The notes under the pieces are model-generated. The model was not told the origin of the DNA. It worked only from the letters and a program-made list of their open reading frames with translations, and did not search any database. A stretch of DNA of 32,000 nucleotides from Pseudomonas aeruginosa (GTDB lineage Bacteria > Pseudomonadota > Gammaproteobacteria > Pseudomonadales > Pseudomonadaceae): positions 4,260,001 to 4,292,000 of the forward strand of contig NZ_LN831024.1 in the NCBI RefSeq assembly GCF_001457615.1, in the 5' to 3' direction. This document shows, piece by piece, positions 3,655-24,289 of the stretch. Positions within the stretch are counted from its first letter, which is position 1. Every line of letters starts with the position of its first letter. Position numbers and translations under genes: made by a program.

Positions 3655-4457
3655 TGCTGATCTGCCCGCTCTGCTCCGCCGCCCTGGGCGAGGTCGACAA
3701 CGGCGTCGCCTGCCCCGCCGGGCACCGCTTCGACCGCGCCCGCCAGGGCTACCTGAACCTGCTGCCGGTGCAGCACAAGAAAAGCCTCGATCCGGGCGAC
3801 AACGCCGCCATGGTCGAGGCCCGTCGCCAGTTCCTCGGCGCCGGCCACTACGCGCCGCTGGCCCGGCGCCTGGCCGAACTGGCCGCCGAACGCGCGCCGC
3901 GACGCTGGCTGGATATCGGTTGCGGCGAGGGCTACTACAGCGCCCGGCTCGGCGAAGCCCTGGCAGGCGCCGAAGGCTATGCCCTGGACATCTCCCGCGA
4001 GGCAGTGAAACGCGCCTGCCGCCGCGCGCCGCAGTTGTCCTGGCTGGTGGCGAGCATGGCCCGGCTGCCGCTGGCCGACGCCAGTTGCGAGCTGATCGCC
4101 AGCGTGTTCAGCCCCATCGACTGGAACGAAGCCGTGCGCGTCCTCGCCCCCGGCGGCGGCGTACTGCGCCTGGGCCCGGCCAGCGCGCACCTGCTGGAAC
4201 TGCGCCAGCGGCTCTATGACGACGTGCGCGACTACGCCGACGACAAGCACCTCGCCGGCCTGCCCGCGCAACTGCGCCTGCGCCACACCGAGACCCTCGA
4301 GTTCCGCCTGGCGCTGGACAGCTACGACGCGCGGGAAAACCTCCTGGCCATGACCCCGCACGGCTGGCGGGTCAACCCCGAGCGCCGCGCGCGAATCCTG
4401 GCCGAACCCTTCGAAGTCAGCGTGGCGGTGCGCTACGATTGGCTGCAACGCGACTGA
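3654..4457 (+). CDS. rlmA: 23S rRNA (guanine-N1)-methyltransferase RlmA/RrmA-like SAM-dependent methyltransferase
   Basis: The ATG at 3654 shares its A with the dapE TGA (3652-3654). It has an N-terminal Zn-ribbon (CPLCsaaL...CpaGH) and the SAM motif LDIGCGEGYY. The product is 267 aa. The track shows only a longer out-of-context ORF in the same frame (2706..4457). Confidence 0.85.
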   Translation: MLICPLCSAALGEVDNGVACPAGHRFDRARQGYLNLLPVQHKKSLDPGDNAAMVEARRQFLGAGHYAPLARRLAELAAERAPRRWLDIGCGEGYYSARLGEALAGAEGYALDISREAVKRACRRAPQLSWLVASMARLPLADASCELIASVFSPIDWNEAVRVLAPGGGVLRLGPASAHLLELRQRLYDDVRDYADDKHLAGLPAQLRLRHTETLEFRLALDSYDARENLLAMTPHGWRVNPERRARILAEPFEVSVAVRYDWLQRD

Positions 4458-5492: not shown

Positions 5493-7109
5493 TCAGCGGT
5501 CGCGCAGACCCGCCTTGCGCGGCCAGGCCAGGGTGAAGCAGGCACCGCCCAGAGTCTCGCTGCGGCCGATGGAGGCCCGGCCGCCATGCCAGTAGACGAT
5601 CCGCCGGACGATGGACAGTCCCAGGCCATGCCCGCCGGAAGCACGGGTCCGGCTGTCGTCCAGGCGTAGGAATGGCGTAAAGAGCCGCTCCCATTGCGCC
5701 TCCGGCACCCCCGGCCCGTCGTCCTCGACATCCACCCGGCAACGCTCCAGGCTGACCCGGTAGCTGATCCTGACCCGACGATCGGCATGCCGCAGCGCAT
5801 TGGTCAGCAGGTTCTGCAAGGCCCGATGCAGGTAGCGCGGCTCGGCCTCGATCCAACTGCCCAGCTCCTCAGGCACCAGCGCGCCCTCCTCGCAACTGAC
5901 CAGCACCTCGCGGCGCAGCGGGGCGATCTCCTCCACCACCTGGCGCACCAGCACGCCCAGCTCCAGGCGCTGGTAGGTCAGCGGCGGCGAGCCCTGTTCC
6001 AGGCGCGCGTAGGTGAGCATCTCGTCGACCAGCTTGTCGAGGTCCTGGATATCGTTGTCCATGCCCTCCAGGTACTTCAGGCGGGCGCCGTCGGTCTCGG
6101 CGGTCTCGATCATCTCCAGGCCGAAGCACAACCGCGCCACCGGCGTGCGCAGCTCGTGGGACACCGCGCGAACCATCTCGCGCTGCACCGTCAGCAGCCG
6201 GTGGATGTGCTCGGCCATATGGTTGAAGGCCGCGCCCAGGCGTCCCACCGAGTCGCCTCCGCGCACCTCGACGCGAGTATCCAGGCTGCCGCGGGCGATC
6301 CGCGTGGCGGCCGCCTCCAGGCTGCGCAGGCGCTGCTCCAGGCGACGCACCAGCAGGTAGGTGATCAGGCCGATGAAGCTCAGGCACAGCGCGCCGAGCA
6401 GCAACAGCAGCTGCGGCGGATAGGGGTTCATCTGGAACAGCGGGCCCAGCTCCAGCACCCAGGGCGTGTCGAGGATGCCGGCGAAGATGCGGATCGAGTC
6501 GCCGTCCTTGCCCAGCGCCATCACCGTGTCGCCCTCCACCACCCGCCGGCGCTGGTCGTCGTCGAGGTCCAGTTCCTTGACCTGGAGCAGGTGCACCGGG
6601 AAGCCGAAGCGCTTGTCGCGGACGATCCGCGCCAGGTGGTAAGGCTGTTCGCTGGCCGGGTAGCGCACCAGTTCGTCCATCAGCAGGTAAACCGTGGCCC
6701 GCGCCAGTTGCTCGCTGACCTGCTGCACCTCGCCGCTGAGCACCAGGTTCTCGGCGGCGCTGGCCTGGGTATAGACGGTGACGGCGTGCTCGGCGGTCTG
6801 CTTCACCAGCACCTGGCCGTTCATCAGGCGCGCGCGGCTGCGTCCGTCCATCCGCAGCTCATCCAGCCCGCGCAGTTGCAGGGGAATCCCCAGCAAGCGG
6901 CTCCACTGCGCCAGGGCGCGCTTGCGCTCGGTGGCGGTCATCGGTTGCAGGTTGTCGGCCATCAGGCGGAAGGTGCCGCGCGCCAGCTCCTCGCGGTAGT
7001 GCTCGCCGCGCACCTCGTTGATCCAGTGCAGGCCGAGCAGGCCCAGGCCGCTGACCAGCAGCAGGGCCAGGAGCATGCCGCCATAGATGCGCAGGAAGAT
7101 GGATTTCAT
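5493..7109 (-). CDS. Two-component sensor histidine kinase (2 TM, HAMP, HisKA, HATPase)
   Basis: Start at MKSIFLRIYGGMLLALLLV (ATG at 7109). H-box SHELRTPV. ATPase boxes DDGPGV and GGHGLGLSIV. The upstream 330 aa of the 868-aa track ORF is an out-of-frame read across the regulator gene. Confidence 0.9.
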   Translation of the reverse strand: MKSIFLRIYGGMLLALLLVSGLGLLGLHWINEVRGEHYREELARGTFRLMADNLQPMTATERKRALAQWSRLLGIPLQLRGLDELRMDGRSRARLMNGQVLVKQTAEHAVTVYTQASAAENLVLSGEVQQVSEQLARATVYLLMDELVRYPASEQPYHLARIVRDKRFGFPVHLLQVKELDLDDDQRRRVVEGDTVMALGKDGDSIRIFAGILDTPWVLELGPLFQMNPYPPQLLLLLGALCLSFIGLITYLLVRRLEQRLRSLEAAATRIARGSLDTRVEVRGGDSVGRLGAAFNHMAEHIHRLLTVQREMVRAVSHELRTPVARLCFGLEMIETAETDGARLKYLEGMDNDIQDLDKLVDEMLTYARLEQGSPPLTYQRLELGVLVRQVVEEIAPLRREVLVSCEEGALVPEELGSWIEAEPRYLHRALQNLLTNALRHADRRVRISYRVSLERCRVDVEDDGPGVPEAQWERLFTPFLRLDDSRTRASGGHGLGLSIVRRIVYWHGGRASIGRSETLGGACFTLAWPRKAGLRDR

Positions 7110-13226: not shown

Positions 13227-14945
13227 ATGGCAAACAAGACTGACAATCTTCCAGACTTCCTTCAGGACTACGCATCTCTTTTTAGTCATTTCCAAGGCCA
13301 GATGGATGGTTTAACAACCGTTCAAATTGGAGATAAATTTGCCTCTTTAGCAGAACATTTGATTCCTCATACCGAGGCAGGCTCAGACTTTGAAAGAGCA
13401 ACAAAGTCAAAAAAGAGCTGGGACAAAGGTGTAGACCTAATATTTCAACACAAAGAAATTAACGGCGTAGAGCTAAGAGTACAGTCAAAATACACCATTT
13501 CGTCAGTAGATGATGTAGACTTAATTATAAGCAAATTCCAAGAGTACGACTCAAAAGATGCAACCAACAAACAACACGAACTAGACCTACTAGGATCATT
13601 AGAAGAAGATAGTCGACAGACAAGCAAATACCTGATAATAACCTCCTCGAAAATATCAAACATAATAGCAAAGTTCTTAGAGAGCCAACGTCCATCAAGA
13701 TTTTTCCTTGAGAGAATAAAAAAAGAAAAACGCTTTCATTATATCGATGGAATAGAAATACTAACCACTATACAGAGCATATATAGAAGTACATACATTC
13801 GCCCCCAAGAAACAAAACTAATATTCCAAACGCCTCACATCAGGGTTAACAATGTATACATTGGAGTACTACCTTGCAACGAACTTCGACGCGTATACGA
13901 AGAAGCTGGTGACTCTATATTCTTTGAAAACATTCGTGAATGGTTAGGATTCCAAGGAAAAAAAGTAAAATCCGGCGGGGTTCGTGAAACAGTCAATGAA
14001 GCAATAGCATCAACACTCGAAGACTCGCCAGAGAAAATGCTCGAAAGAAATAACGGCATAGTAATCAGAGCATCACAAGTGGAGGAAACCTCAAACTCAT
14101 CCTTGAAACTAAGAGATGCTAGTATTGTAAACGGCTGCCAGACTACTATGAGTGTATTTTTCGTCAATCCTGCCGATGGACATGTGCTAGCAAAAATTGT
14201 AGAGACAGAAGATTCATGGGAGATAGCTAAGGCGGCCAATTTCCAGACAGAAATAGAACGAATAGAACTTGAACTAGCCAGATATCTAAGACCACAACTT
14301 GCCAGATCTGTTGGAGCAGAGAATAATTTTAAATTCGACCAAAAAGAAGTAACAAAAGGCAAATCAGCCTTTGCTCTACTCGACCAAATATATAAAGATG
14401 AAATTTGCTATGATGAACTAAAATCGATATTTATCGGACTATTTTCACGCTCTGCAAACAATGCGATATCGCCAAACTATACCGAGCTTAGAATTGATGT
14501 ACTTCAAAACTTCGAAAGAGACTCTGAAAAATCTAAATTCCTAGAGGCTCTTTTCGTGCTCCACAGCAAATCATCTACGGCGATGGAGTCTTTGAAAGAT
14601 GGTTTGTTAAAACCTGAAATTATGGATCTATTTAAAAGATTTTGGAAAGAAGACAAACCATCATATAGGGCATTTGTCACACTCTTAGCCATATTCAGCG
14701 CCCTTGACAAAAAAAATCGCAGGTTTGAAGACTACAACGACATAAAGAGCGGAATAATAAAACTAGCAGGACAAATAGAAATCGACCCCGGCGAATACAT
14801 AGAAACATATATAAAAGCCTTTAAAACTATAGCGCTAGACGTCCTCAAAGGCAGCGAGGACAAGGATAAAATGCTGCAAAGCATGTATCATCACATTGGC
14901 TCAATGAATTTTGAAAATGCTTTACTATCCATGTCACTATTGTAA
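13227..14945 (+). CDS. AIPR-family (abortive infection phage resistance-like) protein with an N-terminal PD-(D/E)xK / Mrr-like nuclease motif, 572 aa
   Basis: Single long ORF in an AT-rich block, with an AAGGGA RBS. Residues 234-306 read ENIREWLG..VNEAIASTL..NNGIVI..IVNGCQT, which I recognise as the AIPR (PF10592) core. Residues 66-88 read DKGVDLIF...ELRVQSKY, which fits D-x(n)-QxK nuclease geometry. I recognise no motif in the C-terminal ~250 aa. Confidence 0.75.
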   Translation: MANKTDNLPDFLQDYASLFSHFQGQMDGLTTVQIGDKFASLAEHLIPHTEAGSDFERATKSKKSWDKGVDLIFQHKEINGVELRVQSKYTISSVDDVDLIISKFQEYDSKDATNKQHELDLLGSLEEDSRQTSKYLIITSSKISNIIAKFLESQRPSRFFLERIKKEKRFHYIDGIEILTTIQSIYRSTYIRPQETKLIFQTPHIRVNNVYIGVLPCNELRRVYEEAGDSIFFENIREWLGFQGKKVKSGGVRETVNEAIASTLEDSPEKMLERNNGIVIRASQVEETSNSSLKLRDASIVNGCQTTMSVFFVNPADGHVLAKIVETEDSWEIAKAANFQTEIERIELELARYLRPQLARSVGAENNFKFDQKEVTKGKSAFALLDQIYKDEICYDELKSIFIGLFSRSANNAISPNYTELRIDVLQNFERDSEKSKFLEALFVLHSKSSTAMESLKDGLLKPEIMDLFKRFWKEDKPSYRAFVTLLAIFSALDKKNRRFEDYNDIKSGIIKLAGQIEIDPGEYIETYIKAFKTIALDVLKGSEDKDKMLQSMYHHIGSMNFENALLSMSLL

Positions 14946-16470: not shown

Positions 16471-16704
16471 TTAGGCGTAAACCCCAATAAAATACTCCAA
16501 TCCAACCGGAAGCTTTTCGCCTATAACCTCCTCAATCCTTACAACATCATCATTCTTAATAGGATATTCACCCTCAATATTCTCACCCTTCTTCCAACGC
16601 ATCACCTCCATAACTTGCGAAATATATTCGAAAGGAACAGTTTTTTCATATTTCAAGGACTCATCATTTCCCTATGGTAGGTACCCAGAAATCAATACAG
16701 TCAT
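16471..16704 (-). pseudogene. Putative immunity gene of the E3-like rRNase cassette, with an in-frame TAG at codon 11; a 61-aa TTG-initiated ORF (16471..16656) remains open
   Basis: The ATG at 16704 overlaps the toxin-remnant TGA in an ATGA arrangement, the classical position of a bacteriocin immunity gene. The reading frame gives MTVLISGYLP*GNDES(L)KYEKTVPFEY... I see no similarity to ImmE3, so the assignment rests on position only. Confidence 0.4.
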
Positions 16705-16965
16705 GTTTCTACACTCCTTTTTGGATCAGCAGACTTCGTGCGAGCACCAGTATTAGAATCAAACCCTCCCAAGTGCCACCCTCTCTTGTCATACATCTCA
16801 AAACTGCCATGCTGAGAATCCCATTTATAGATATTCCCTTTTATCCTTCCAATGCTTCCGCAACCCACCACCACCTTGAATAGAAGTTTTTGGCTTAGCT
16901 CTCAAGGCGTCGGGGAAGGCAGGTAGTGTTGCCGGAGCAGGATAGTAATACACAAGGCTTTCAAT
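16701..16965 (-). pseudogene. Colicin E3 / pyocin S6-type 16S rRNase cytotoxic domain remnant (no N-terminal domains, one internal frameshift)
   Basis: The minus-strand translation reads IESLVYYYPAPATLPAFPDALRAKPKTSIQGGGGLRKHWKDKR, then a frameshift near 16836-16845, then NIYKWDSQHGSFEMYDKRGWHLGGFDSNTGARTKSADPKRSVET*. It aligns by eye with the recalled colicin E3 C-terminus DYHPAPKTENIKGLGDLKPGIPKTPKQNGGGKRKRWTGDKGRKIYEWDSQHGELEGYRASDGQHLGSFDPKTGNQLKGPDPKRNIKKYL. An in-frame TGA lies immediately upstream at 16966-16968. Confidence 0.8.
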
Positions 16966-17051
16966 TCAAAATCGCAGACTCACGCATTTTGCGACTGACG
17001 CACTAACTGACAATTCGGCGATTTACATCTGCTCTCGAAGCATGGATTGGC

Positions 17052-17088
17052 TAAGAAACAGGCGAAGCCCATAAACTGACTTCGCCTG
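17052..17088 (-). terminator. Rho-independent terminator downstream of the ImmD-like gene
   Basis: 9-bp stem CAGGCGAAG / CTTCGCCTG (17059-17088) followed on the minus strand by TTTCTT (17053-17058), about 30 nt after the 17120 stop. Confidence 0.7.
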
Positions 17089-17119
17089 ATCTATATCTTC
17101 GGATATAAAGGATCATCAG

Positions 17120-17392
17120 CTAGATATATTTATATTTCTTCAAAAGCCCTCTAACTTCCTGCTTTAGCTCCTCTTCATTTATCTCACCATCATTATCCTT
17201 CGGTCCATCCGTGAAGCAATCTGCCATTCCAAACATAAGCCTGAGGCAAGCGCCAAGATTATCATCATCCTTTTTCAGCAAGCCTGACGCACCTTCGCTA
17301 CGCCACATTTCAAAGAATTTTTTTGTGAAACTCTTTCCGCTTAACGATCCATCCAAAAAATTTCTTGCAAGATCAATAAGTGCCATGCTCAT
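17120..17392 (-). CDS. Colicin D immunity (ImmD)-like protein, orphan immunity gene, 90 aa
   Basis: MSMALIDLARNFLDGSLSGKSFTKKF...EINEEELKQEVRGLLKKYKYI parallels the recalled ImmD sequence ([24 protein letters not shown]...[21 protein letters not shown]) in length and at both termini. The ORF is intact, its ATG lies 6 nt after the upstream toxin-remnant stop, and it has its own terminator. Confidence 0.8.
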   Translation of the reverse strand: MSMALIDLARNFLDGSLSGKSFTKKFFEMWRSEGASGLLKKDDDNLGACLRLMFGMADCFTDGPKDNDGEINEEELKQEVRGLLKKYKYI

Positions 17393-17398
17393 TTAAAT

Positions 17399-17620
17399 CA
17401 TCTCATTCTCAAAATAGTTTTTTCCTGTCTGCTTCCTGGCTCAAGATACCACCCTGACAAAAACATTCCATCCTCTTTGAGAACAACCACAATACTAGTA
17501 TCAGGACTGTAAAATAATTGGATCCTTGATACCTATGACAAACCCCTTGCAAATTATGTCGTGCTTTATCGAAGCGCTCCTGCCTTATCTGCATGACTTC
17601 TTCATAAATGTACGATTTGG
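17399..17620 (-). pseudogene. Colicin D-type tRNase domain C-terminal remnant (multiple frameshifts)
   Basis: The last 33 codons read SPDTSIVVVLKEDGMFLSGWYLEPGSRQEKTILRMR* (stop 17399-17401), against the recalled colicin D end NPNTMNVVIIKSNGEFLSGWKINPDADNGRIYLETGEL. Upstream homology continues in two other frames: CKGFVIGIKDPIILQ matches EKGTYRREKGSKVYFN spacing, and ERFDKARHNL matches KFRDAIEEHL. The upstream limit is approximate. Confidence 0.6.
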
Positions 17621-17909
17621 CGTTGTCGCCTTCAGCTTCCCGCTGGACTCCCTTGACCTTACGAGTCATCCGCTCGTAATCTTCCGGCCACAACGCTTGC
17701 TCCATGCGCAACGATGCCTGACCCAGCAAATGCAGCAGGCCGAACAGGCGCATATCGTTGGTGGCAACGATGTGTTCTCGAATCCACTCGTGGGTTACTC
17801 CGCAGGCCAGATGTGTTTCTGGCGTTGATGTGCTGTCATAGTCGGCTCGGAATCCCGCTTCTTTGGCGAGCTGTGCCCAGTGCTGGCCAATGCCTGGTGT
17901 TGGATGTAC

Positions 17910-18169
17910 TCATTTGCTCATCCACTTGCGCAGCAGGCGCTTTTTCAGGGACGCGCGTTCTTGCGGGTTGTGTCCCTTGAGGTTAGCGACACGATCTGCC
18001 GTAGCAGCCTGGCGTATGAGGGGCCAGTAGGAACGCCCATCCTTACGTGGCACCAGTGTTATTGACCTGACTTTCCAGTAGGGAGAGGTGGGCTGCTGGC
18101 CAACGTGGAGAGCTCGCTACGGCAGCTCGTGCGCCCGACGATGGGTGTTTTGCGGTGGTTGCGGCTCAT
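17910..18169 (-). pseudogene. Frameshifted small conserved hypothetical gene (~86 codons)
   Basis: The ATG at 18169 gives MSRNHRKTPIVGRTSCRSE... and stops after 36 codons. The reading continues in another frame ([48 protein letters not shown], stop 17910-17912). The span of 260 nt is not a multiple of 3. I recall this as a widespread small hypothetical family but cannot name it. Confidence 0.4.
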
Positions 18170-18230
18170 AATGTGATTGTCTTCAAGAATATTCAGGACA
18201 GACTGTCAAGATAGAGCAGCGTCAACATGG

Positions 18231-18258
18231 AACAAGCCCCGTCGAAACGGGGCTTGTT
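18231..18258 (-). terminator. Hairpin terminating the pyocin-immunity operon
   Basis: AACAAGCCCCG-TCGAAA-CGGGGCTTGTT, a perfect 11-bp stem 10 nt downstream of the immunity stop. It has no clean U-tract. Confidence 0.6.
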
Positions 18259-18267
18259 GATGGCCAA

Positions 18268-18531
18268 CTAACCGGCCTTAAAGCCAGGAAGCCCCTTGGA
18301 AGCACGCCATTCTTTAACTTCCTTTACAACTCCAGCTGGGCTATCTTCTCTATTTTCGTTGGGGTAGTAAAGAAGGTCTGAGCCGCTTGGGTGTTCCGTT
18401 AGTTTTTTAAATTCAAGCACGGCTTGAATATGAGACTCCTCGGTAGGGAACTTTTTCTTATTGTTTGTGTATATGTCTTTAACAAACTCAAGAAACTCTT
18501 TTTCCGTATATTCGGAAATCTTGGACTTCAT
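18268..18531 (-). CDS. imm1: S1/S2-type pyocin DNase immunity protein (colicin E-DNase Im family, 87 aa)
   Basis: MKSKISEYTEKEFLEFVKDIYTNN...LLYYPNENREDSPAGVVKEVKEWRASKGLPGFKAG is the recalled 87-aa pyocin S1/S2 immunity sequence. Its ATG follows the pyocin TGA by 1 nt. Confidence 0.92.
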   Translation of the reverse strand: MKSKISEYTEKEFLEFVKDIYTNNKKKFPTEESHIQAVLEFKKLTEHPSGSDLLYYPNENREDSPAGVVKEVKEWRASKGLPGFKAG

Positions 18532-18532
18532 A

Positions 18533-20389
18533 TCACTTCCCTCCCGTGTGGATTTCTATATGACGTTTTGGCGTTACTGCAACAAGGTTCCCCATATTGT
18601 AAACGCCGCCTCCATCTGCTATTCGAACCTTGTGGTGGATTTCGATCTTTATTCTCCCGCCAGCCTGTTCTGACTCTCTGACATAAGGAGCACCTCCATC
18701 TCTCATTACAGCTAAACTACCAGGATTAAACTGTTTACTTAACTCAGGATCATTAGCCACAGCTATCCAGAATTGTTCCCGAAAGTCCCGCCAGTTTTTG
18801 AATGTCTTACCACGTAGTTTATCCGCAATCTGGCTTGGAATTGGAGCCCCCTCACCTTGAGAGGCGGCGCCGAGCCAATTACCGCTGACGGGCTGTCCCT
18901 TGCCAGTCGCAGCACCAGGTACATCCCGCGGATCCCTGAACATCACATAGATCGGCTTGATCCCCGAGTCGGCCGGGAAGCCGATGATCAGATCATCCGG
19001 TAGCGTCATCACTCCTGGATAGGTTTCTGGTTTGGCCTTCACCGGTGTGAGGGTCGCCCCCTCATATACCGGCACCGGCTTCGGTACGACCGGAGTGGTA
19101 CTCGAAGGGTTCTGGTTTCCGGGAGGACTCGCCGGCGTCCAGGTCAGGATAAGCGGCGGTGCTTCTGCGACCGTAGAGGGAACCGTAACCTCGTACAGTC
19201 CTGTCGCGGTGTTATAGGCCGCCATCCGGACTGGAACGGCTTTCGGAACGCTCACACCATCGGTGCTGACCACCGAAAGGGTCGTCGTGCTGCCCCGTGC
19301 CTCGTTGGTCAGTCGCATCGGCAGATCGACGGTACCACCTGCTTTTGCAACCGCGTTCAGATTTACGCTTGAGGGAAGCCCCAGCTTGTTGGCATCCATG
19401 CCCAGGGCGTAACGAACGCTATCGGGCGTTTGGTCCTGCCATTGCTCGGCAGTCCGGGAGGAGTAGGTCAGACTGGCAAAGCCCACGGCCATCACCGAGG
19501 GTGCTGAAGCCAGGACCCGGCCCAGGACGGCAATCGCATCGGAGATCGCTTGAGCAAGGGATGCGGCGCCTTGTGCGACCTGGATCAGACCCCGGCCTGC
19601 GGCGGTGGCGACAACGCTGCCATTGGCCGGCATGGCATAGGTATTGGCAGCTCTTATCGCCGCTTGCTGGCGGGCCTGCTCTTCGGCTTTGCGTTTGGCC
19701 TCAGCCGCTGCTTGTTCACGCGCCTTGTTTGCTGCGGCCGCCTCAATACTTGCTTTGGCGGCGGTCAACGTATTCATGCGGATCTGGAGACTACTGATCG
19801 CTTCGGTGAAGAGTTTTACGTTATAAGCTGCCGTGAGACCTTCCATTTCCCTGTCGAGGAAGCGCATATAGGCTTCAGGCCCGTTAATATTGCCTTCTCG
19901 CACCGCTTGTTCACCGATCTCTTCCGCCGTACGGGTAAGGAAATTCTTTGCACCCAGGCTGGTAATCTTCTTCTGATTCAGCAGTAGTTTTTGATTCTTT
20001 TGCTGGAGGGCGTTTCCAACGATGGTCAGACTGCGGTTGATGACGTCCAATGGTGCAAGATTCTTTGCCGGACCAAGAGCGGCATCAGCCTTATCCAGCT
20101 CGGCTTGTACCGACGCCTCAAGTTTTTTCTCGGCATCTCGGAACTGAAGCTCGATCTCCCTGCGTTTTTCTTTAACCTGAAGAGGAACATAGCGTCTGGG
20201 GTCAACGCCCAGATCAGCATAACTTTCAAACTCTTGCCAGCCATTTTCAGTGGACGAATCCAAGCCGTGCTCTATAGGTCTGGCAATGGGGCCAATGCCG
20301 GTACCTCCCCCAGGGCCGTAATAAACGTCTCCGCTTGCCGTGACAGTTGTAGAGTTGAAGTGGATAAGGTCAGCAATGGGTCGTGCCAT
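18533..20389 (-). CDS. pys1: S-type pyocin, S1-type large component with a C-terminal HNH DNase domain (618 aa)
   Basis: AGGAGA RBS. The C-terminal ~370 aa (from AAIRAANTYAMPANGSVV... to HHKVRIADGGGVYNMGNLVAVTPKRHIEIH) match the recalled pyocin S2 translocation and HNH domains. The N-terminal ~245 aa (MARPIADLIHFNSTTVTASGDVYYGPGGG...) differ from S2 (MAVNDYEPG...). The 618-aa length equals the published S1 size. Confidence 0.88.
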   Translation of the reverse strand: MARPIADLIHFNSTTVTASGDVYYGPGGGTGIGPIARPIEHGLDSSTENGWQEFESYADLGVDPRRYVPLQVKEKRREIELQFRDAEKKLEASVQAELDKADAALGPAKNLAPLDVINRSLTIVGNALQQKNQKLLLNQKKITSLGAKNFLTRTAEEIGEQAVREGNINGPEAYMRFLDREMEGLTAAYNVKLFTEAISSLQIRMNTLTAAKASIEAAAANKAREQAAAEAKRKAEEQARQQAAIRAANTYAMPANGSVVATAAGRGLIQVAQGAASLAQAISDAIAVLGRVLASAPSVMAVGFASLTYSSRTAEQWQDQTPDSVRYALGMDANKLGLPSSVNLNAVAKAGGTVDLPMRLTNEARGSTTTLSVVSTDGVSVPKAVPVRMAAYNTATGLYEVTVPSTVAEAPPLILTWTPASPPGNQNPSSTTPVVPKPVPVYEGATLTPVKAKPETYPGVMTLPDDLIIGFPADSGIKPIYVMFRDPRDVPGAATGKGQPVSGNWLGAASQGEGAPIPSQIADKLRGKTFKNWRDFREQFWIAVANDPELSKQFNPGSLAVMRDGGAPYVRESEQAGGRIKIEIHHKVRIADGGGVYNMGNLVAVTPKRHIEIHTGGK

Positions 20390-20458: not shown

Positions 20459-20524
20459 GCCAAATGAACGCCAATACACTGGAAATACACAGCAATCAAA
20501 CTGCAATATCCCGTATCCAATGAC
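20459..20524 (-). promoter_or_regulatory. P box (PrtN activator binding repeats) of the pyocin promoter
   Basis: The minus strand reads cATTGgatacgggatATTGcaGTttgATTGctGTgtatttccagtgtATTGgcGTtcATTTGgc. These are repeated ATTGnnGT units 70-135 nt upstream of the pys1 ATG, as described for pyocin genes. Confidence 0.75.
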
Positions 20525-20886
20525 CCAGAAGGCCCATCCTTGGCCATTCCCTTCTACGAAACGACCTCGTTTGCGCATGCGCCCATCCAGCGGTCATTTT
20601 CTGCACGAAAACCTCATCTACCCCTGCCAGTCACGGAAGCCGCATACCTTCGGTTCATTAACGAAGTCCCACCTTCAAAATTCATCCATGCCGCCCCTTC
20701 GCGAGCTTCCGGACAAAGCCACGCTGATTGCGAGCCCAGCGTTTTTGATTGCAAGCCGCTGCACCTGGTTAGGCCATTTCCGCAGCGCATGAAGTCCTGG
20801 CCGATATACCGGCAGGGCCAGCCATCGTTCGACGAATAAAGCCACCTCAGCCATGATGCCCTTTCCATCCCCAGCGGAACCCCGAC

Positions 20887-21282: not shown

Positions 21283-22062
21283 ATGCACCTGCTTTACCCC
21301 TCCGCCCCCGACCGCAGCAACGCGGTCGATGAACTCTTCGCCGAGGAATATGACGCGGCCCGTTCGGCAGGCTTGGCCTGTTCGCTGTTCTGCGACGAGG
21401 AACTGGAGAGTGGACGCTTTCGCGCCCGCCCGGAGTTTCCGGCAAACCCCAAGGTGCTGTATCGCGGCTGGATGCTCACACCGGAAAACTACGCTCGCCT
21501 GCACGGCGCGATTCTCGTCGCTGGCGGACGGCCCCTGACCAGTCCACAGCAATATCGGCACTGCCATTACTTGCCGGAGTGGTATCCGCTCTGTGAGGAC
21601 CTCACGCCGGCGACCCTGTTCCTGTCCAGGAACGCCGACTTCGAGACAGTGTTGGCGCAAAGCCCGTGGCGCGCCTGGTTCGTCAAGGACCATGTGAAAT
21701 CCCTGACCACCCAGCGCGGCTCGAAGGCCACCAATGCTGCGGAAGTGCGGGAAGTCCTCGATTCGATCGAGCGTTATCGAGGCACCATCGAAGGCGGTGT
21801 ATGCCTTCGGGAGTTCGAGGCGCTGCGTGCGGAAACCGAGGAACGCTACTTCGTTCTTCACGGCCGCGCTCACGGGCGTCTCGATACCGTCCCGCCGCTA
21901 GTGGAACAGGTGGCACAACGTATCGATTGCCCGTTCTTTTCCGTCGACGTGGTCGAGTCGGCCAGTGGCGAGTTGCGCCTGATGGAACTCGGCGATGGCC
22001 AGGTCTCCGACCGCAAGCAATGGCCCGCCGCACGCTTCGCGGCGATGCTGGCACAGGCATAG
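21283..22062 (+). CDS. ATP-grasp domain protein (short ~250-aa DUF4343-like class)
   Basis: WFVKDHVKS...IEGGVCLREF...ERYFVLHG...FFSVDVVESASGELRLMELGDGQVSD follows the pattern of short stand-alone ATP-grasp proteins. Host-like codon usage. Confidence 0.65.
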   Translation: MHLLYPSAPDRSNAVDELFAEEYDAARSAGLACSLFCDEELESGRFRARPEFPANPKVLYRGWMLTPENYARLHGAILVAGGRPLTSPQQYRHCHYLPEWYPLCEDLTPATLFLSRNADFETVLAQSPWRAWFVKDHVKSLTTQRGSKATNAAEVREVLDSIERYRGTIEGGVCLREFEALRAETEERYFVLHGRAHGRLDTVPPLVEQVAQRIDCPFFSVDVVESASGELRLMELGDGQVSDRKQWPAARFAAMLAQA

Positions 22063-22372
22063 TCGGAACCGCTGCAATCCCAACCCGACCAAGCTCCCCT
22101 TGATCGATCCTGAGGGAGCTCGTCACTCGCCCAGTGCCTCGACCAATTACTCTCATCCAAAGCCCAAGAACGGTTGTCCATCCCCTCGCCCATGGATATT
22201 TCTTCCACTCTGCAATCCAGTTCATAAATCCCATAAAAGCCCTCTTCCGCTCCCCGCCAGCCTCCCCGCATCCCGCACCCTAGACGCCCCGCCGCTCTCC
22301 GCCGGCTCGCCCGACAAGAAAAACCAACCGCTCGATCAGCCTCATCCTTCACCCATCACAGGAGCCATCGCG

Positions 22373-24289
22373 ATGCACCTGACACCCCATTGGATCCCCC
22401 TGGTCGCCAGCCTCGGCCTGCTCGCCGGCGGCTCGTCCGCGTCCGCCGCCGAGGAAGCCTTCGACCTCTGGAACGAATGCGCCAAAGCCTGCGTGCTCGA
22501 CCTCAAGGACGGCGTGCGTTCCAGCCGCATGAGCGTCGACCCGGCCATCGCCGACACCAACGGCCAGGGCGTGCTGCACTACTCCATGGTCCTGGAGGGC
22601 GGCAACGACGCGCTCAAGCTGGCCATCGACAACGCCCTCAGCATCACCAGCGACGGCCTGACCATCCGCCTCGAAGGCGGCGTCGAGCCGAACAAGCCGG
22701 TGCGCTACAGCTACACGCGCCAGGCGCGCGGCAGTTGGTCGCTGAACTGGCTGGTGCCGATCGGCCACGAGAAGCCTTCGAACATCAAGGTGTTCATCCA
22801 CGAACTGAACGCCGGTAACCAGCTCAGCCACATGTCGCCGATCTACACCATCGAGATGGGCGACGAGTTGCTGGCGAAGCTGGCGCGCGATGCCACCTTC
22901 TTCGTCAGGGCGCACGAGAGCAACGAGATGCAGCCGACGCTCGCCATCAGCCATGCCGGGGTCAGCGTGGTCATGGCCCAGGCCCAGCCGCGCCGGGAAA
23001 AGCGCTGGAGCGAATGGGCCAGCGGCAAGGTGTTGTGCCTGCTCGACCCGCTGGACGGGGTCTACAACTACCTCGCCCAGCAGCGCTGCAACCTCGACGA
23101 TACCTGGGAAGGCAAGATCTACCGGGTGCTCGCCGGCAACCCGGCGAAGCATGACCTGGACATCAAGCCCACGGTCATCAGTCATCGCCTGCACTTCCCC
23201 GAAGGCGGCAGCCTGGCCGCGCTGACCGCGCACCAGGCCTGCCACCTGCCGCTGGAGACTTTCACCCGTCATCGCCAGCCGCGCGGCTGGGAACAACTGG
23301 AGCAGTGCGGCTATCCGGTGCAGCGGCTGGTCGCCCTCTACCTGGCGGCGCGACTGTCGTGGAACCAGGTCGACCAAGTGATCCGCAACGCCCTGGCCAG
23401 CCCCGGCAGCGGCGGCGACCTGGGCGAAGCGATCCGCGAGCAGCCGGAGCAGGCCCGTCTGGCCCTGACCCTGGCCGCCGCCGAGAGCGAGCGCTTCGTC
23501 CGGCAGGGCACAGGCAACGACGAGGCCGGCGCGGCCAGCGCCGACGTGGTGAGCCTGACCTGCCCGGTCGCCGCCGGTGAATGCGCGGGCCCGGCGGACA
23601 GCGGCGACGCCCTGCTGGAGCGCAACTATCCCACTGGCGCGGAGTTCCTCGGCGACGGCGGCGACATCAGCTTCAGCACCCGCGGCACGCAGAACTGGAC
23701 GGTGGAGCGGCTGCTCCAGGCGCACCGCCAACTGGAGGAGCGCGGCTATGTGTTCGTCGGCTACCACGGCACCTTCCTCGAAGCGGCGCAAAGCATCGTC
23801 TTCGGCGGGGTGCGCGCGCGCAGCCAGGACCTCGACGCGATCTGGCGCGGTTTCTATATCGCCGGCGATCCGGCGCTGGCCTACGGCTACGCCCAGGACC
23901 AGGAACCCGACGCGCGCGGCCGGATCCGCAACGGTGCCCTGCTGCGGGTCTATGTGCCGCGCTCGAGTCTGCCGGGCTTCTACCGCACCGGCCTGACCCT
24001 GGCCGCGCCGGAGGCGGCGGGCGAGGTCGAACGGCTGATCGGCCATCCGCTGCCGCTGCGCCTGGACGCCATCACCGGCCCCGAGGAGGAAGGCGGGCGC
24101 CTGGAGACCATTCTCGGCTGGCCGCTGGCCGAGCGCACCGTGGTGATTCCCTCGGCGATCCCCACCGACCCGCGCAACGTCGGCGGCGACCTCGACCCGT
24201 CCAGCATCCCCGACAAGGAACAGGCGATCAGCGCCCTGCCGGACTACGCCAGCCAGCCCGGCAAACCGCCGCGCGAGGACCTGAAGTAA
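22373..24289 (+). CDS. toxA: Exotoxin A precursor (NAD+-diphthamide ADP-ribosyltransferase, 638 aa)
   Basis: ATG at 22373 with a GGAG RBS. Signal peptide MHLTPHWIPLVASLGLLAGGSSASA/AEEAFDLWNECAKACVLDLKDG. Furin site RHRQPRGW. Catalytic domain GYHGTFLEAAQSIVFGGVRAR...WPLAERTVVIPSAIP. C-terminal REDLK. The track ORF start at 21995 is an upstream over-extension. Confidence 0.97.
   Translation: MHLTPHWIPLVASLGLLAGGSSASAAEEAFDLWNECAKACVLDLKDGVRSSRMSVDPAIADTNGQGVLHYSMVLEGGNDALKLAIDNALSITSDGLTIRLEGGVEPNKPVRYSYTRQARGSWSLNWLVPIGHEKPSNIKVFIHELNAGNQLSHMSPIYTIEMGDELLAKLARDATFFVRAHESNEMQPTLAISHAGVSVVMAQAQPRREKRWSEWASGKVLCLLDPLDGVYNYLAQQRCNLDDTWEGKIYRVLAGNPAKHDLDIKPTVISHRLHFPEGGSLAALTAHQACHLPLETFTRHRQPRGWEQLEQCGYPVQRLVALYLAARLSWNQVDQVIRNALASPGSGGDLGEAIREQPEQARLALTLAAAESERFVRQGTGNDEAGAASADVVSLTCPVAAGECAGPADSGDALLERNYPTGAEFLGDGGDISFSTRGTQNWTVERLLQAHRQLEERGYVFVGYHGTFLEAAQSIVFGGVRARSQDLDAIWRGFYIAGDPALAYGYAQDQEPDARGRIRNGALLRVYVPRSSLPGFYRTGLTLAAPEAAGEVERLIGHPLPLRLDAITGPEEEGGRLETILGWPLAERTVVIPSAIPTDPRNVGGDLDPSSIPDKEQAISALPDYASQPGKPPREDLK

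Follow-up and report, generated by a model that had tools for sequence, protein, structure and literature searches.

Downstream of toxA in Pseudomonas aeruginosa, a 90-amino acid (aa) open reading frame (ORF) that resembles a colicin immunity gene stands among pyocin genes and fragments of pyocin genes. This raises the question of which toxin the gene belongs to, how it came to stand without that toxin, and whether it can still protect the cell. We examined it in a stretch of 32,000 nucleotides (nt) of contig NZ_LN831024.1 (positions 4,260,001 to 4,292,000), called the window below; coordinates are those of the window unless another locus is named. We consider it highly probable that the ORF is what survives of an SD3-type relic cassette, in which the gene for a tRNase pyocin of the colicin D family has decayed and the immunity gene is intact and would, if expressed, give resistance to pyocin SD3.

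To establish what the ORF encodes, we compared its product with profiles and known structures. The reading frame is uninterrupted, and residues 1–86 of the protein matched positions 1–87 of the 88 in the Colicin_immun profile (PF09204) with an E-value of 9.7e-15 and 55.4 bits, where the gathering cut-off is 22 bits. Among proteins in the PDB it matched the chains of the colicin D immunity protein ImmD, 1V74_B and 1TFK_B (E = 7e-4). The protein was modelled with AlphaFold at modest confidence (mean pLDDT 68) as all-helical, with helices at residues 3–13, 19–34, 44–57 and 73–86. The best two Foldseek matches of this model were again 1TFK_B and 1V74_B (TM scores 0.71–0.76, probability 1.00), and the next match had a TM score of 0.38. 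By its sequence and its predicted fold, the ORF thus encodes an immunity protein of the ImmD family. This agrees with a sequence-only reading of the same DNA, which had proposed an intact ImmD-like gene at this position and had named PF09204 as the profile to check. In a separate observation, the loop PKDNDGEINEEE (17192–17227, reverse strand; about residues 56–75), which is the lowest-confidence part of the AlphaFold model, is similar to a calcium-binding EF-hand except at position 1. Residues 60–78 gave sub-threshold Pfam matches to EF-hand families (17 bits) and matches to troponin and myosin light chains in the PDB.

The toxin to which the gene belongs was identified through intact relatives of the cassette, which we located from the genomic contexts of near-identical immunity alleles. 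One such allele, P0024, has 87 of 90 residues in common with the protein of the window and lies directly behind an intact gene for a 740-aa pyocin in loci L018 and L020. This pyocin carries Pyocin_S and Colicin_D (PF11429) domains above threshold, and its cassette occupies the same toxA locus. Because its length and architecture match those of pyocin SD3 (PMC4964976), we identify it as SD3, also named S12. A blastn comparison aligned window positions 17548–17051 with L018 positions 3843–4342 at 94.2% identity with 2 gaps, and the matching stretch of L018 comprises the last 158 nt of the toxin gene, the immunity gene and the terminator. The two cassettes therefore share the last 51 toxin codons, the junction at which the toxin stop codon TAA abuts the ATG of the immunity gene, and the terminator. 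The immunity genes of the window and of SD3 loci (ImSD3, from PA7 and relatives) differ at 8 of 273 nt; of the encoded residues, N66, G82 and K88 of the window are D, E and S in ImSD3. From the identity of the DNA and of the immunity proteins, the cognate toxin of the orphan is pyocin SD3/S12 specifically. The sequence-only reading had expected protection against colicin-D-like pyocins in general; this has to be narrowed to SD3/S12, the immunity protein of the related pyocin SD2 being only 54% identical to the orphan.

The remaining toxin sequence shows how far the gene has decayed. Relative to SD3, the toxin gene has lost 689 of its 740 codons, and those that remain are frameshifted. Two 1-nt deletions, one after 17522 and one in an A-run after 17424, cause the last 51 codons to be read in three successive frames. 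Once the frame was repaired, the stub GVCHRYQGSQLFYSPDTSIVVVLKEDGMFLSGWYLEPGSRQEKNYFENEMI was identical to SD3 at 42 of 51 residues. A tblastn search with SD3 covered only residues 699–740, and the alignment indicates that SD3 residues of about 690–740 are kept. The peptide SIVVVLKEDGMFLSGWYLEPGS, whose frame stops at 17398–17400, is present in the remnant as the sequence-only reading had reported, and it matched residues 54–91 of colicin D (1TFK_A) with an E-value of 2.7e-4 and an intact colicin-D-type pyocin of Pseudomonas with a tblastn E-value of 2.6e-10. These matches uphold the earlier proposal that a decayed tRNase gene of the colicin D type precedes the immunity gene. By contrast, the PF11429 profile, which that proposal had put forward as a check, gave 16.3 bits on the remnant even after manual frame repair, below the threshold of 25, because only profile positions 47–77 of 84 survive. 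Raw translations of 17393–18270 in three frames gave no Pfam match, and word-indexed protein searches with toxin fragments returned almost nothing useful. The Ser and Trp of the motif FLSGW are kept in the stub; the catalytic Lys/His region (KKYQSHADDFG in SD3) is absent, transposon DNA having taken the place of the catalytic His region. Since this region is missing from the stub, activity as a toxin can be excluded. Within the 32-kb window tblastn found no intact gene for the cognate toxin, and SD3 normally sits at this very site.

Upstream of the remnant the sequence is of a different kind. The segment that follows it up to the pyocin S1 immunity gene is G+C-rich, shares its 76–79% nt identity with more than 1500 plasmids and gave no Pfam match in any frame. 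Its homologue in locus L015 consists of two hypothetical genes beside a small transposase gene, a RelE/XRE pair and a recombinase gene. On the basis of this similarity we take the segment to be transposon-derived and not part of a toxin gene. The sequence-only reading had the toxin homology hopping across frames and extending to 17620. Frame hopping is real within 17393–17548, where the two deletions lie, and the DNA further upstream, from about 17559, is unrelated transposon sequence. The homology to SD3 ends at 17548, so that the earlier bound was about 70 nt too far and the shattered domain measures 156 nt. A chimeric 114-aa ORF spans the boundary: its residues 1–65 are 72% identical to residues 55–119 of a hypothetical protein of L015. 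This ORF is called by gene callers in related loci, and from the gene order given in PMC4905994 it is probably PA1152 of PAO1. The peptide RFDKARHNLQGF had been considered as the catalytic motif of colicin D, shortened by an internal deletion. We rejected this because of its 72% identity to the Tn3-family passenger protein and because tblastn searches with intact toxins found nothing there. The features of the region are collected in Table 1.

Table 1. Features of the toxA-proximal pyocin region in the window, and routes by which the toxin gene was lost in related loci.
Feature	Position	Strand	Evidence or remark
toxA	21995–24289	+	Exotox-A domains
Pyocin S1 gene, 618 aa, HNH DNase type	18533–20389	-	Pyocin_S 125 bits, Col-Pyo_DNase 166 bits
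Pyocin S1 immunity gene, 87 aa	18268–18531	-	PF01320 123.5 bits
Hairpin just 3' of S1 immunity gene, no U-run	18231–18258	-	-20.8 kcal/mol, z = -4.3
Degenerate Tn3-family passenger-gene remnant	17559–18264	-	76–79% nt identity to plasmids
Chimeric 114-aa ORF	17409–17753	-	Residues 1–65 transposon passenger; rest out-of-frame toxin remnant
3' remnant of SD3-type (colicin D family) tRNase gene, last 51 codons and stop	17393–17548	-	blastn 94.2%
G-to-A change in putative Shine-Dalgarno of immunity gene (GAGGTG to GAGATG), 8 nt before ATG	17401	-	
Orphan immunity gene, 90 aa and stop, colicin D immunity family, ImSD3 type	17120–17392	-	PF09204, ImmD matches
Intrinsic-terminator-like hairpin with T-rich tail, 3' of immunity gene	17049–17088	-	Stem 17088–17059
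Pyocin S6-type (colicin E3-like rRNase) toxin 3' remnant	16701–16953	-	PF09000 Cytotoxic, E = 1e-16
S6-type orphan immunity gene, 77 aa, stop at codon 11	16471–16704	-	Stop at 16672–16674
Toxin-loss routes	A-type junction 17548; L008 junction 17498; B-type decayed half-pyocin; codon 126 frameshift in L019, L021 and L023		

The immunity gene is followed by the rho-independent terminator that the sequence-only reading had noticed. It has an 11-pair stem with 7 G-C pairs and a moderately U-rich tail (TTTCTT), with a folding energy of -20.9 kcal/mol (z = -4.3). The terminator is conserved in intact SD3 loci and is inherited from the SD3 cassette.

Pyocin S1 is the active toxin of the locus. Upstream of its gene are ATTG..GT repeats at about 20460–20525, which resemble a P-box and which we take to be one. 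Going downstream, S1 or S2 with its immunity gene comes first; the chimeric ORF, the orphan of the tRNase type, the S6 stub and the S6-type orphan follow, and then a Bro-N gene. All loci that code for the identical 90-aa protein share this arrangement. The PAO1-like locus L024 is 99.4% identical to the window over 18600–16401. The toxA site itself is a mosaic at which S1, S2, SD2, SD3, S6 and an uncharacterised 661-aa pyocin are all found. We picture the region of the window as a stack of three toxin–immunity cassettes downstream of toxA, with the active S1 gene and its immunity gene followed by the Tn3-family remnant, the SD3 (S12) relic, which would be the second cassette, and an S6 relic.

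The S6 relic has the same architecture as the SD3 relic and adjoins it. Its toxin remnant of about 250 nt matches PF09000 profile positions 36–80 of 80, and PGAP labels the homologous stretch as fragments of a 'colicin E3/pyocin S6 family cytotoxin'. A 250-nt S6-type toxin remnant has been described before (PMC4905994). The immunity gene behind it reads GYLP*GND in the window, with a serine at the position of the stop in six related loci, and once repaired it matched NF040643 (S6_alt_immun) with 84 bits. The S6-type orphan of PAO1 is experimentally protective (Dingemans et al., 2016, PMC4905994), so that the strain of the window may have lost immunity to pyocin S6.

To see how common the orphan is and how often the toxin has been lost beside it, we compared related loci. 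Public assemblies list the exact 90-aa protein in 8570 index blocks, with the same genomic surroundings throughout, and annotate it as 'colicin immunity domain-containing protein'. The PAO1 variant occurs in 2947 index blocks and the allele beside SD3 in 1840. Loss of the toxin with retention of an intact immunity gene has occurred by at least four independent routes. In loci L019, L021 and L023, at around 2153–2169, SD3 genes of full length carry a frameshift near codon 126 in front of an intact immunity gene, which is a recent and independent inactivation of the toxin. The immunity gene is itself a mosaic: its first 90 nt fall into two haplotypes (A and B types) that are 23% apart, and the remainder varies by 0.5–3%. 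B-type orphans (L005 at 5560–6000; L026 and L030) stand behind a longer decayed pyocin relic that corresponds to SD3 residues of about 507–727, in three frames and with stops. The 23% divergence of the first 30 codons of the B type from the A type suggests descent from a different variant of colicin-D-type pyocin.

The gene itself is already published and annotated in public genomes. Dingemans et al. (2016, PMC4905994) reported an orphan PF09204 gene 'downstream of PA1152' in PAO1, in the S1 producer ATCC 25324 and in DK2. This is the same gene as in the window, at the same place and in the same order (S1 or S2 immunity gene, PA1152-like ORF, orphan, S6 remnant, S6-type orphan, PA1153), and the protein of the PAO1-like locus L024 differs from that of the window by N11D only. 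Those authors proposed that such orphans provide wider protection, and they proved protection for the S6-type orphan only, which belongs to a different family (rRNase, colicin E3-like) from the SD3-type orphan. Their report gives the Pfam family of the PF09204 orphan and neither a toxin remnant nor an assignment to a pyocin. The window differs from the loci that they described in its Shine-Dalgarno change and in the nonsense codon of the S6-type orphan. What is added here is the assignment of the orphan to the SD3/S12 type and the recognition of the PA1152-like ORF as a chimera of transposon and toxin. We also add that the published killing of PAO1 by SD2, discussed below, is not a cognate result, and that the ribosome-binding site of the window copy is probably weakened.

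Further systems help to place the relic. McCaughey et al. (2016, PMC4964976) showed that the pyocins SD1, SD2 and SD3 are active, each with an immunity protein of 90 aa. SD2 (S11) and its immunity protein ImSD2 belong to the same toxin and immunity families as SD3 and ImSD3 and occupy the same chromosomal site in locus L046, which we recovered through a metagenome scan; the killing domains of SD2 and SD3 are 66% identical. A scan of genome contigs gave no P. aeruginosa locus, only loci of other Pseudomonas and of Serratia, and these supplied intact colicin-D-type toxins. Colicin D and ImmD of Escherichia coli (1V74, 1TFK) share with the relic the immunity family, the four-helix fold predicted for the orphan, and the motif G.FLSGW...P.. 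at the toxin C-terminus. By contrast with ImmD, to which it is about 30% identical, the orphan is chromosomal, belongs with a pyocin-type delivery module and has no intact toxin. E-colicin plasmids, with their extra immunity genes and toxin stubs, and the orphan modules of contact-dependent inhibition (CDI) and Rhs loci are comparable, in that displaced C-terminal cassettes accumulate downstream of the active gene. They differ from this locus in their delivery systems and replicons.

We propose that the SD3 toxin gene would first have been cut off to its last 51 codons and would have acquired the two frameshifts later, with the 90-aa immunity gene and the terminator staying intact through the loss of the toxin. 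By analogy with ImmD, which blocks the active site of its tRNA-cleaving toxin (Graille et al., 2004, as cited in PMC4964976), the small four-helix product would bind the tRNase domain of an SD3-type pyocin imported into the cytoplasm and occlude the active site. Cells producing the orphan protein would then resist SD3 producers without the cost of making the toxin. The comparisons above show what the cassette is, where it came from, how it is built and how widely it is distributed; the binding of SD3, the transcription and translation of the orphan, and its retention because of protection are inferred.

The sequence-only reading supposed that selection has kept the orphan. Set against the cassette of intact SD3 loci, 2.9% of positions are changed in the immunity gene, 14 of 156 nt (9.0%) in the stub and 7 of 69 nt (10.1%) in the downstream spacer, so that both flanks have diverged three times as far as the gene (Fisher p = 0.003; Poisson P for 8 or fewer differences = 5e-5). 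Against intact SD3 loci its ratio of nonsynonymous to synonymous divergence (dN/dS) is 0.22. There are no insertions or deletions in the 273 nt of the immunity gene compared with two in the 156 nt of the remnant, a rate at which about 3.5 would be expected in the gene. Orphan alleles of both the A and B types are intact beside toxin remnants full of frameshifts. The repeated inactivation of the toxin beside an intact immunity gene, by the four or more routes noted above, also counts in favor of selection. These data speak against the idea that the orphan is a silent relic, with no useful expression or protection, whose ORF is intact since it is short and has spread clonally or by recombination; the protection given by the analogous S6-type orphan of PAO1 points in the same direction.

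Several other findings are neutral or weigh against a protective orphan, and we regard a silent relic as possible, if somewhat doubtful. In orphan-only B-type alleles the gene diverges by 1.8–4.0% and the flanks by 1.4–5.0%, with polymorphism ratios (pN/pS) of 0.24–0.94; the gene there evolves as fast as its flanks, so that constraint in the orphan phase is not demonstrated for these alleles. Part of the divergence between the orphan and SD3 may date from the phase in which the gene was still paired with its toxin. Decay of the toxin first is expected from target size alone, which is eight-fold larger for the toxin gene (2.2 kb versus 0.27 kb). Truncated or fused orphan alleles, including a 53-aa form in DK2, exist at low frequency, and the nonsense mutation in the adjacent S6-type orphan hints that selection on relic immunity genes may have relaxed in this lineage. 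Taken together, selection for retention of the orphan is plausible and, from the sequence comparisons, moderately supported: the divergence of the A-type gene and its dN/dS favor the earlier supposition, and the B-type and truncated alleles do not.

Expression raises similar doubts. The putative Shine-Dalgarno sequence reads GAGGTG in 22 of 22 related loci (among them PAO1-like loci, loci with intact SD3 and nine that encode the identical protein) and GAGATG in the window alone, a change that by its sequence may weaken translation of the orphan in this strain. Promoter-like sites are no commoner than in shuffled sequence (3 found, 3.2 expected). A candidate promoter at 17541–17514 (a 9/12 site) is left unclaimed because such sites are as numerous after shuffling, the intact gene has a weaker version of this one, and a deletion has removed it from loci of the L008 type. 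The orphan lies on the same strand as the S1 operon, about 860–870 nt downstream of it, and is separated from it by the transposon remnant and by the strong hairpin behind the S1 immunity gene. This hairpin was not called by the terminator scan, and through it read-through into the orphan cassette may be attenuated. A literature search for expression of PA1152 gave nothing.

The published record also bears on protection. PAO1, whose orphan differs by one residue, is killed by purified SD2 (PMC4964976), and a 2026 preprint dropped an unannotated S12 orphan immunity family as non-protective, citing McCaughey et al. (2016). That family is probably the orphan of the window. The killing of PAO1 by SD2 means that cross-protection against SD2 is absent or that the orphan is silent. 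However, because ImSD2 is as distant from the orphan, and the two killing domains are as distant from each other, as stated above, SD2 is a non-cognate test, and it does not prove that the orphan fails against SD3.

Two other readings of the locus seem to us far less probable. The orphan could guard against a colicin-D-type tRNase of a CDI, Rhs or type VI secretion system toxin instead of an S-type pyocin. A Pseudomonas-like contig, L002, has three tandem PF09204 genes with toxin fragments in an arrangement like a polymorphic toxin array, and in L018 a truncated pyocin with an immunity gene of the CdiI_5 type comes after the SD3 locus. By contrast, the cassette of the window is 94% identical to that of the SD3 pyocin, the remnant continues the SD3 reading frame, and no non-pyocin partner was present in any locus examined, so that this reading is very unlikely. 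We give equally little credence to the relic as a recombination reservoir, a source of homology for regaining or swapping killing-domain and immunity modules at toxA. The mosaic of pyocins at this one site and the mosaic structure of the immunity gene fit such a role, but the remnant, which has lost the catalytic half, cannot rebuild a toxin alone, the integrity of the ORF would be left unexplained, and no direct evidence for a reservoir was found. An SD3-type relic whose intact immunity gene would give resistance to SD3 if expressed is the reading that we retain.

Other loci examined contained features worth recording. On metagenome contig L002 (1–1800), each of the three tandem PF09204 genes has a terminator-like hairpin; the end of a colicin-D-type toxin precedes the first of them, and the second is preceded by a toxin stub that is fused to a fragment resembling a recombinase. 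The contig shows that an immunity array exists outside P. aeruginosa. In the SD3-positive strains of L018 and L022 (4730–6462), a truncated pyocin of 421 aa stands behind the SD3 cassette; it is 82% identical to part of SD3, has a different C-terminus and precedes a CdiI_5-type immunity gene of 155 aa. The pyocin of up to 661 aa in L026 (1054–3296; also L005–L007 and L027–L035) has a Pyocin_S domain and no Pfam killing domain, and the 85-aa gene in the immunity position next to it has no Pfam match; the two may be an uncharacterised pair of killing domain and immunity protein. Within the window, a gene of 572 aa for an AIPR (abortive-infection-type) protein (13227–14945, forward strand; PF10592, 102 bits) sits at a place where a transposase-like gene of 177 aa is found in most related strains; L041 has the same arrangement as the window. 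Between the Bro-N gene and the AIPR gene there is a match to the Rfam family sRNA-Xcc1 (RF02221; 15524–15607, forward strand) with 72.5 bits, compared with a gathering score of 53.

The range of strains that a pyocin can kill depends on orphan immunity genes, which therefore matter for competition between strains and for narrow-spectrum pyocin drugs. A stronger version of our proposal, which we put forward only tentatively, is that expression of the orphan is constitutive and protects fully against the killing domain of SD3, and that such pre-existing immunity across the species explains why SD3 producers are rare and why few isolates are killed by SD3. This idea comes from the presence of the two orphan alleles in a large part of the sequenced P. 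aeruginosa, with 8570 and 2947 index blocks compared with 1840 for the SD3-paired allele. If it is true, SD3-type killing domains would be ruled out for therapeutic pyocins, and from the stacked relics downstream of toxA one could read how killing domains have replaced one another in series at a single locus.

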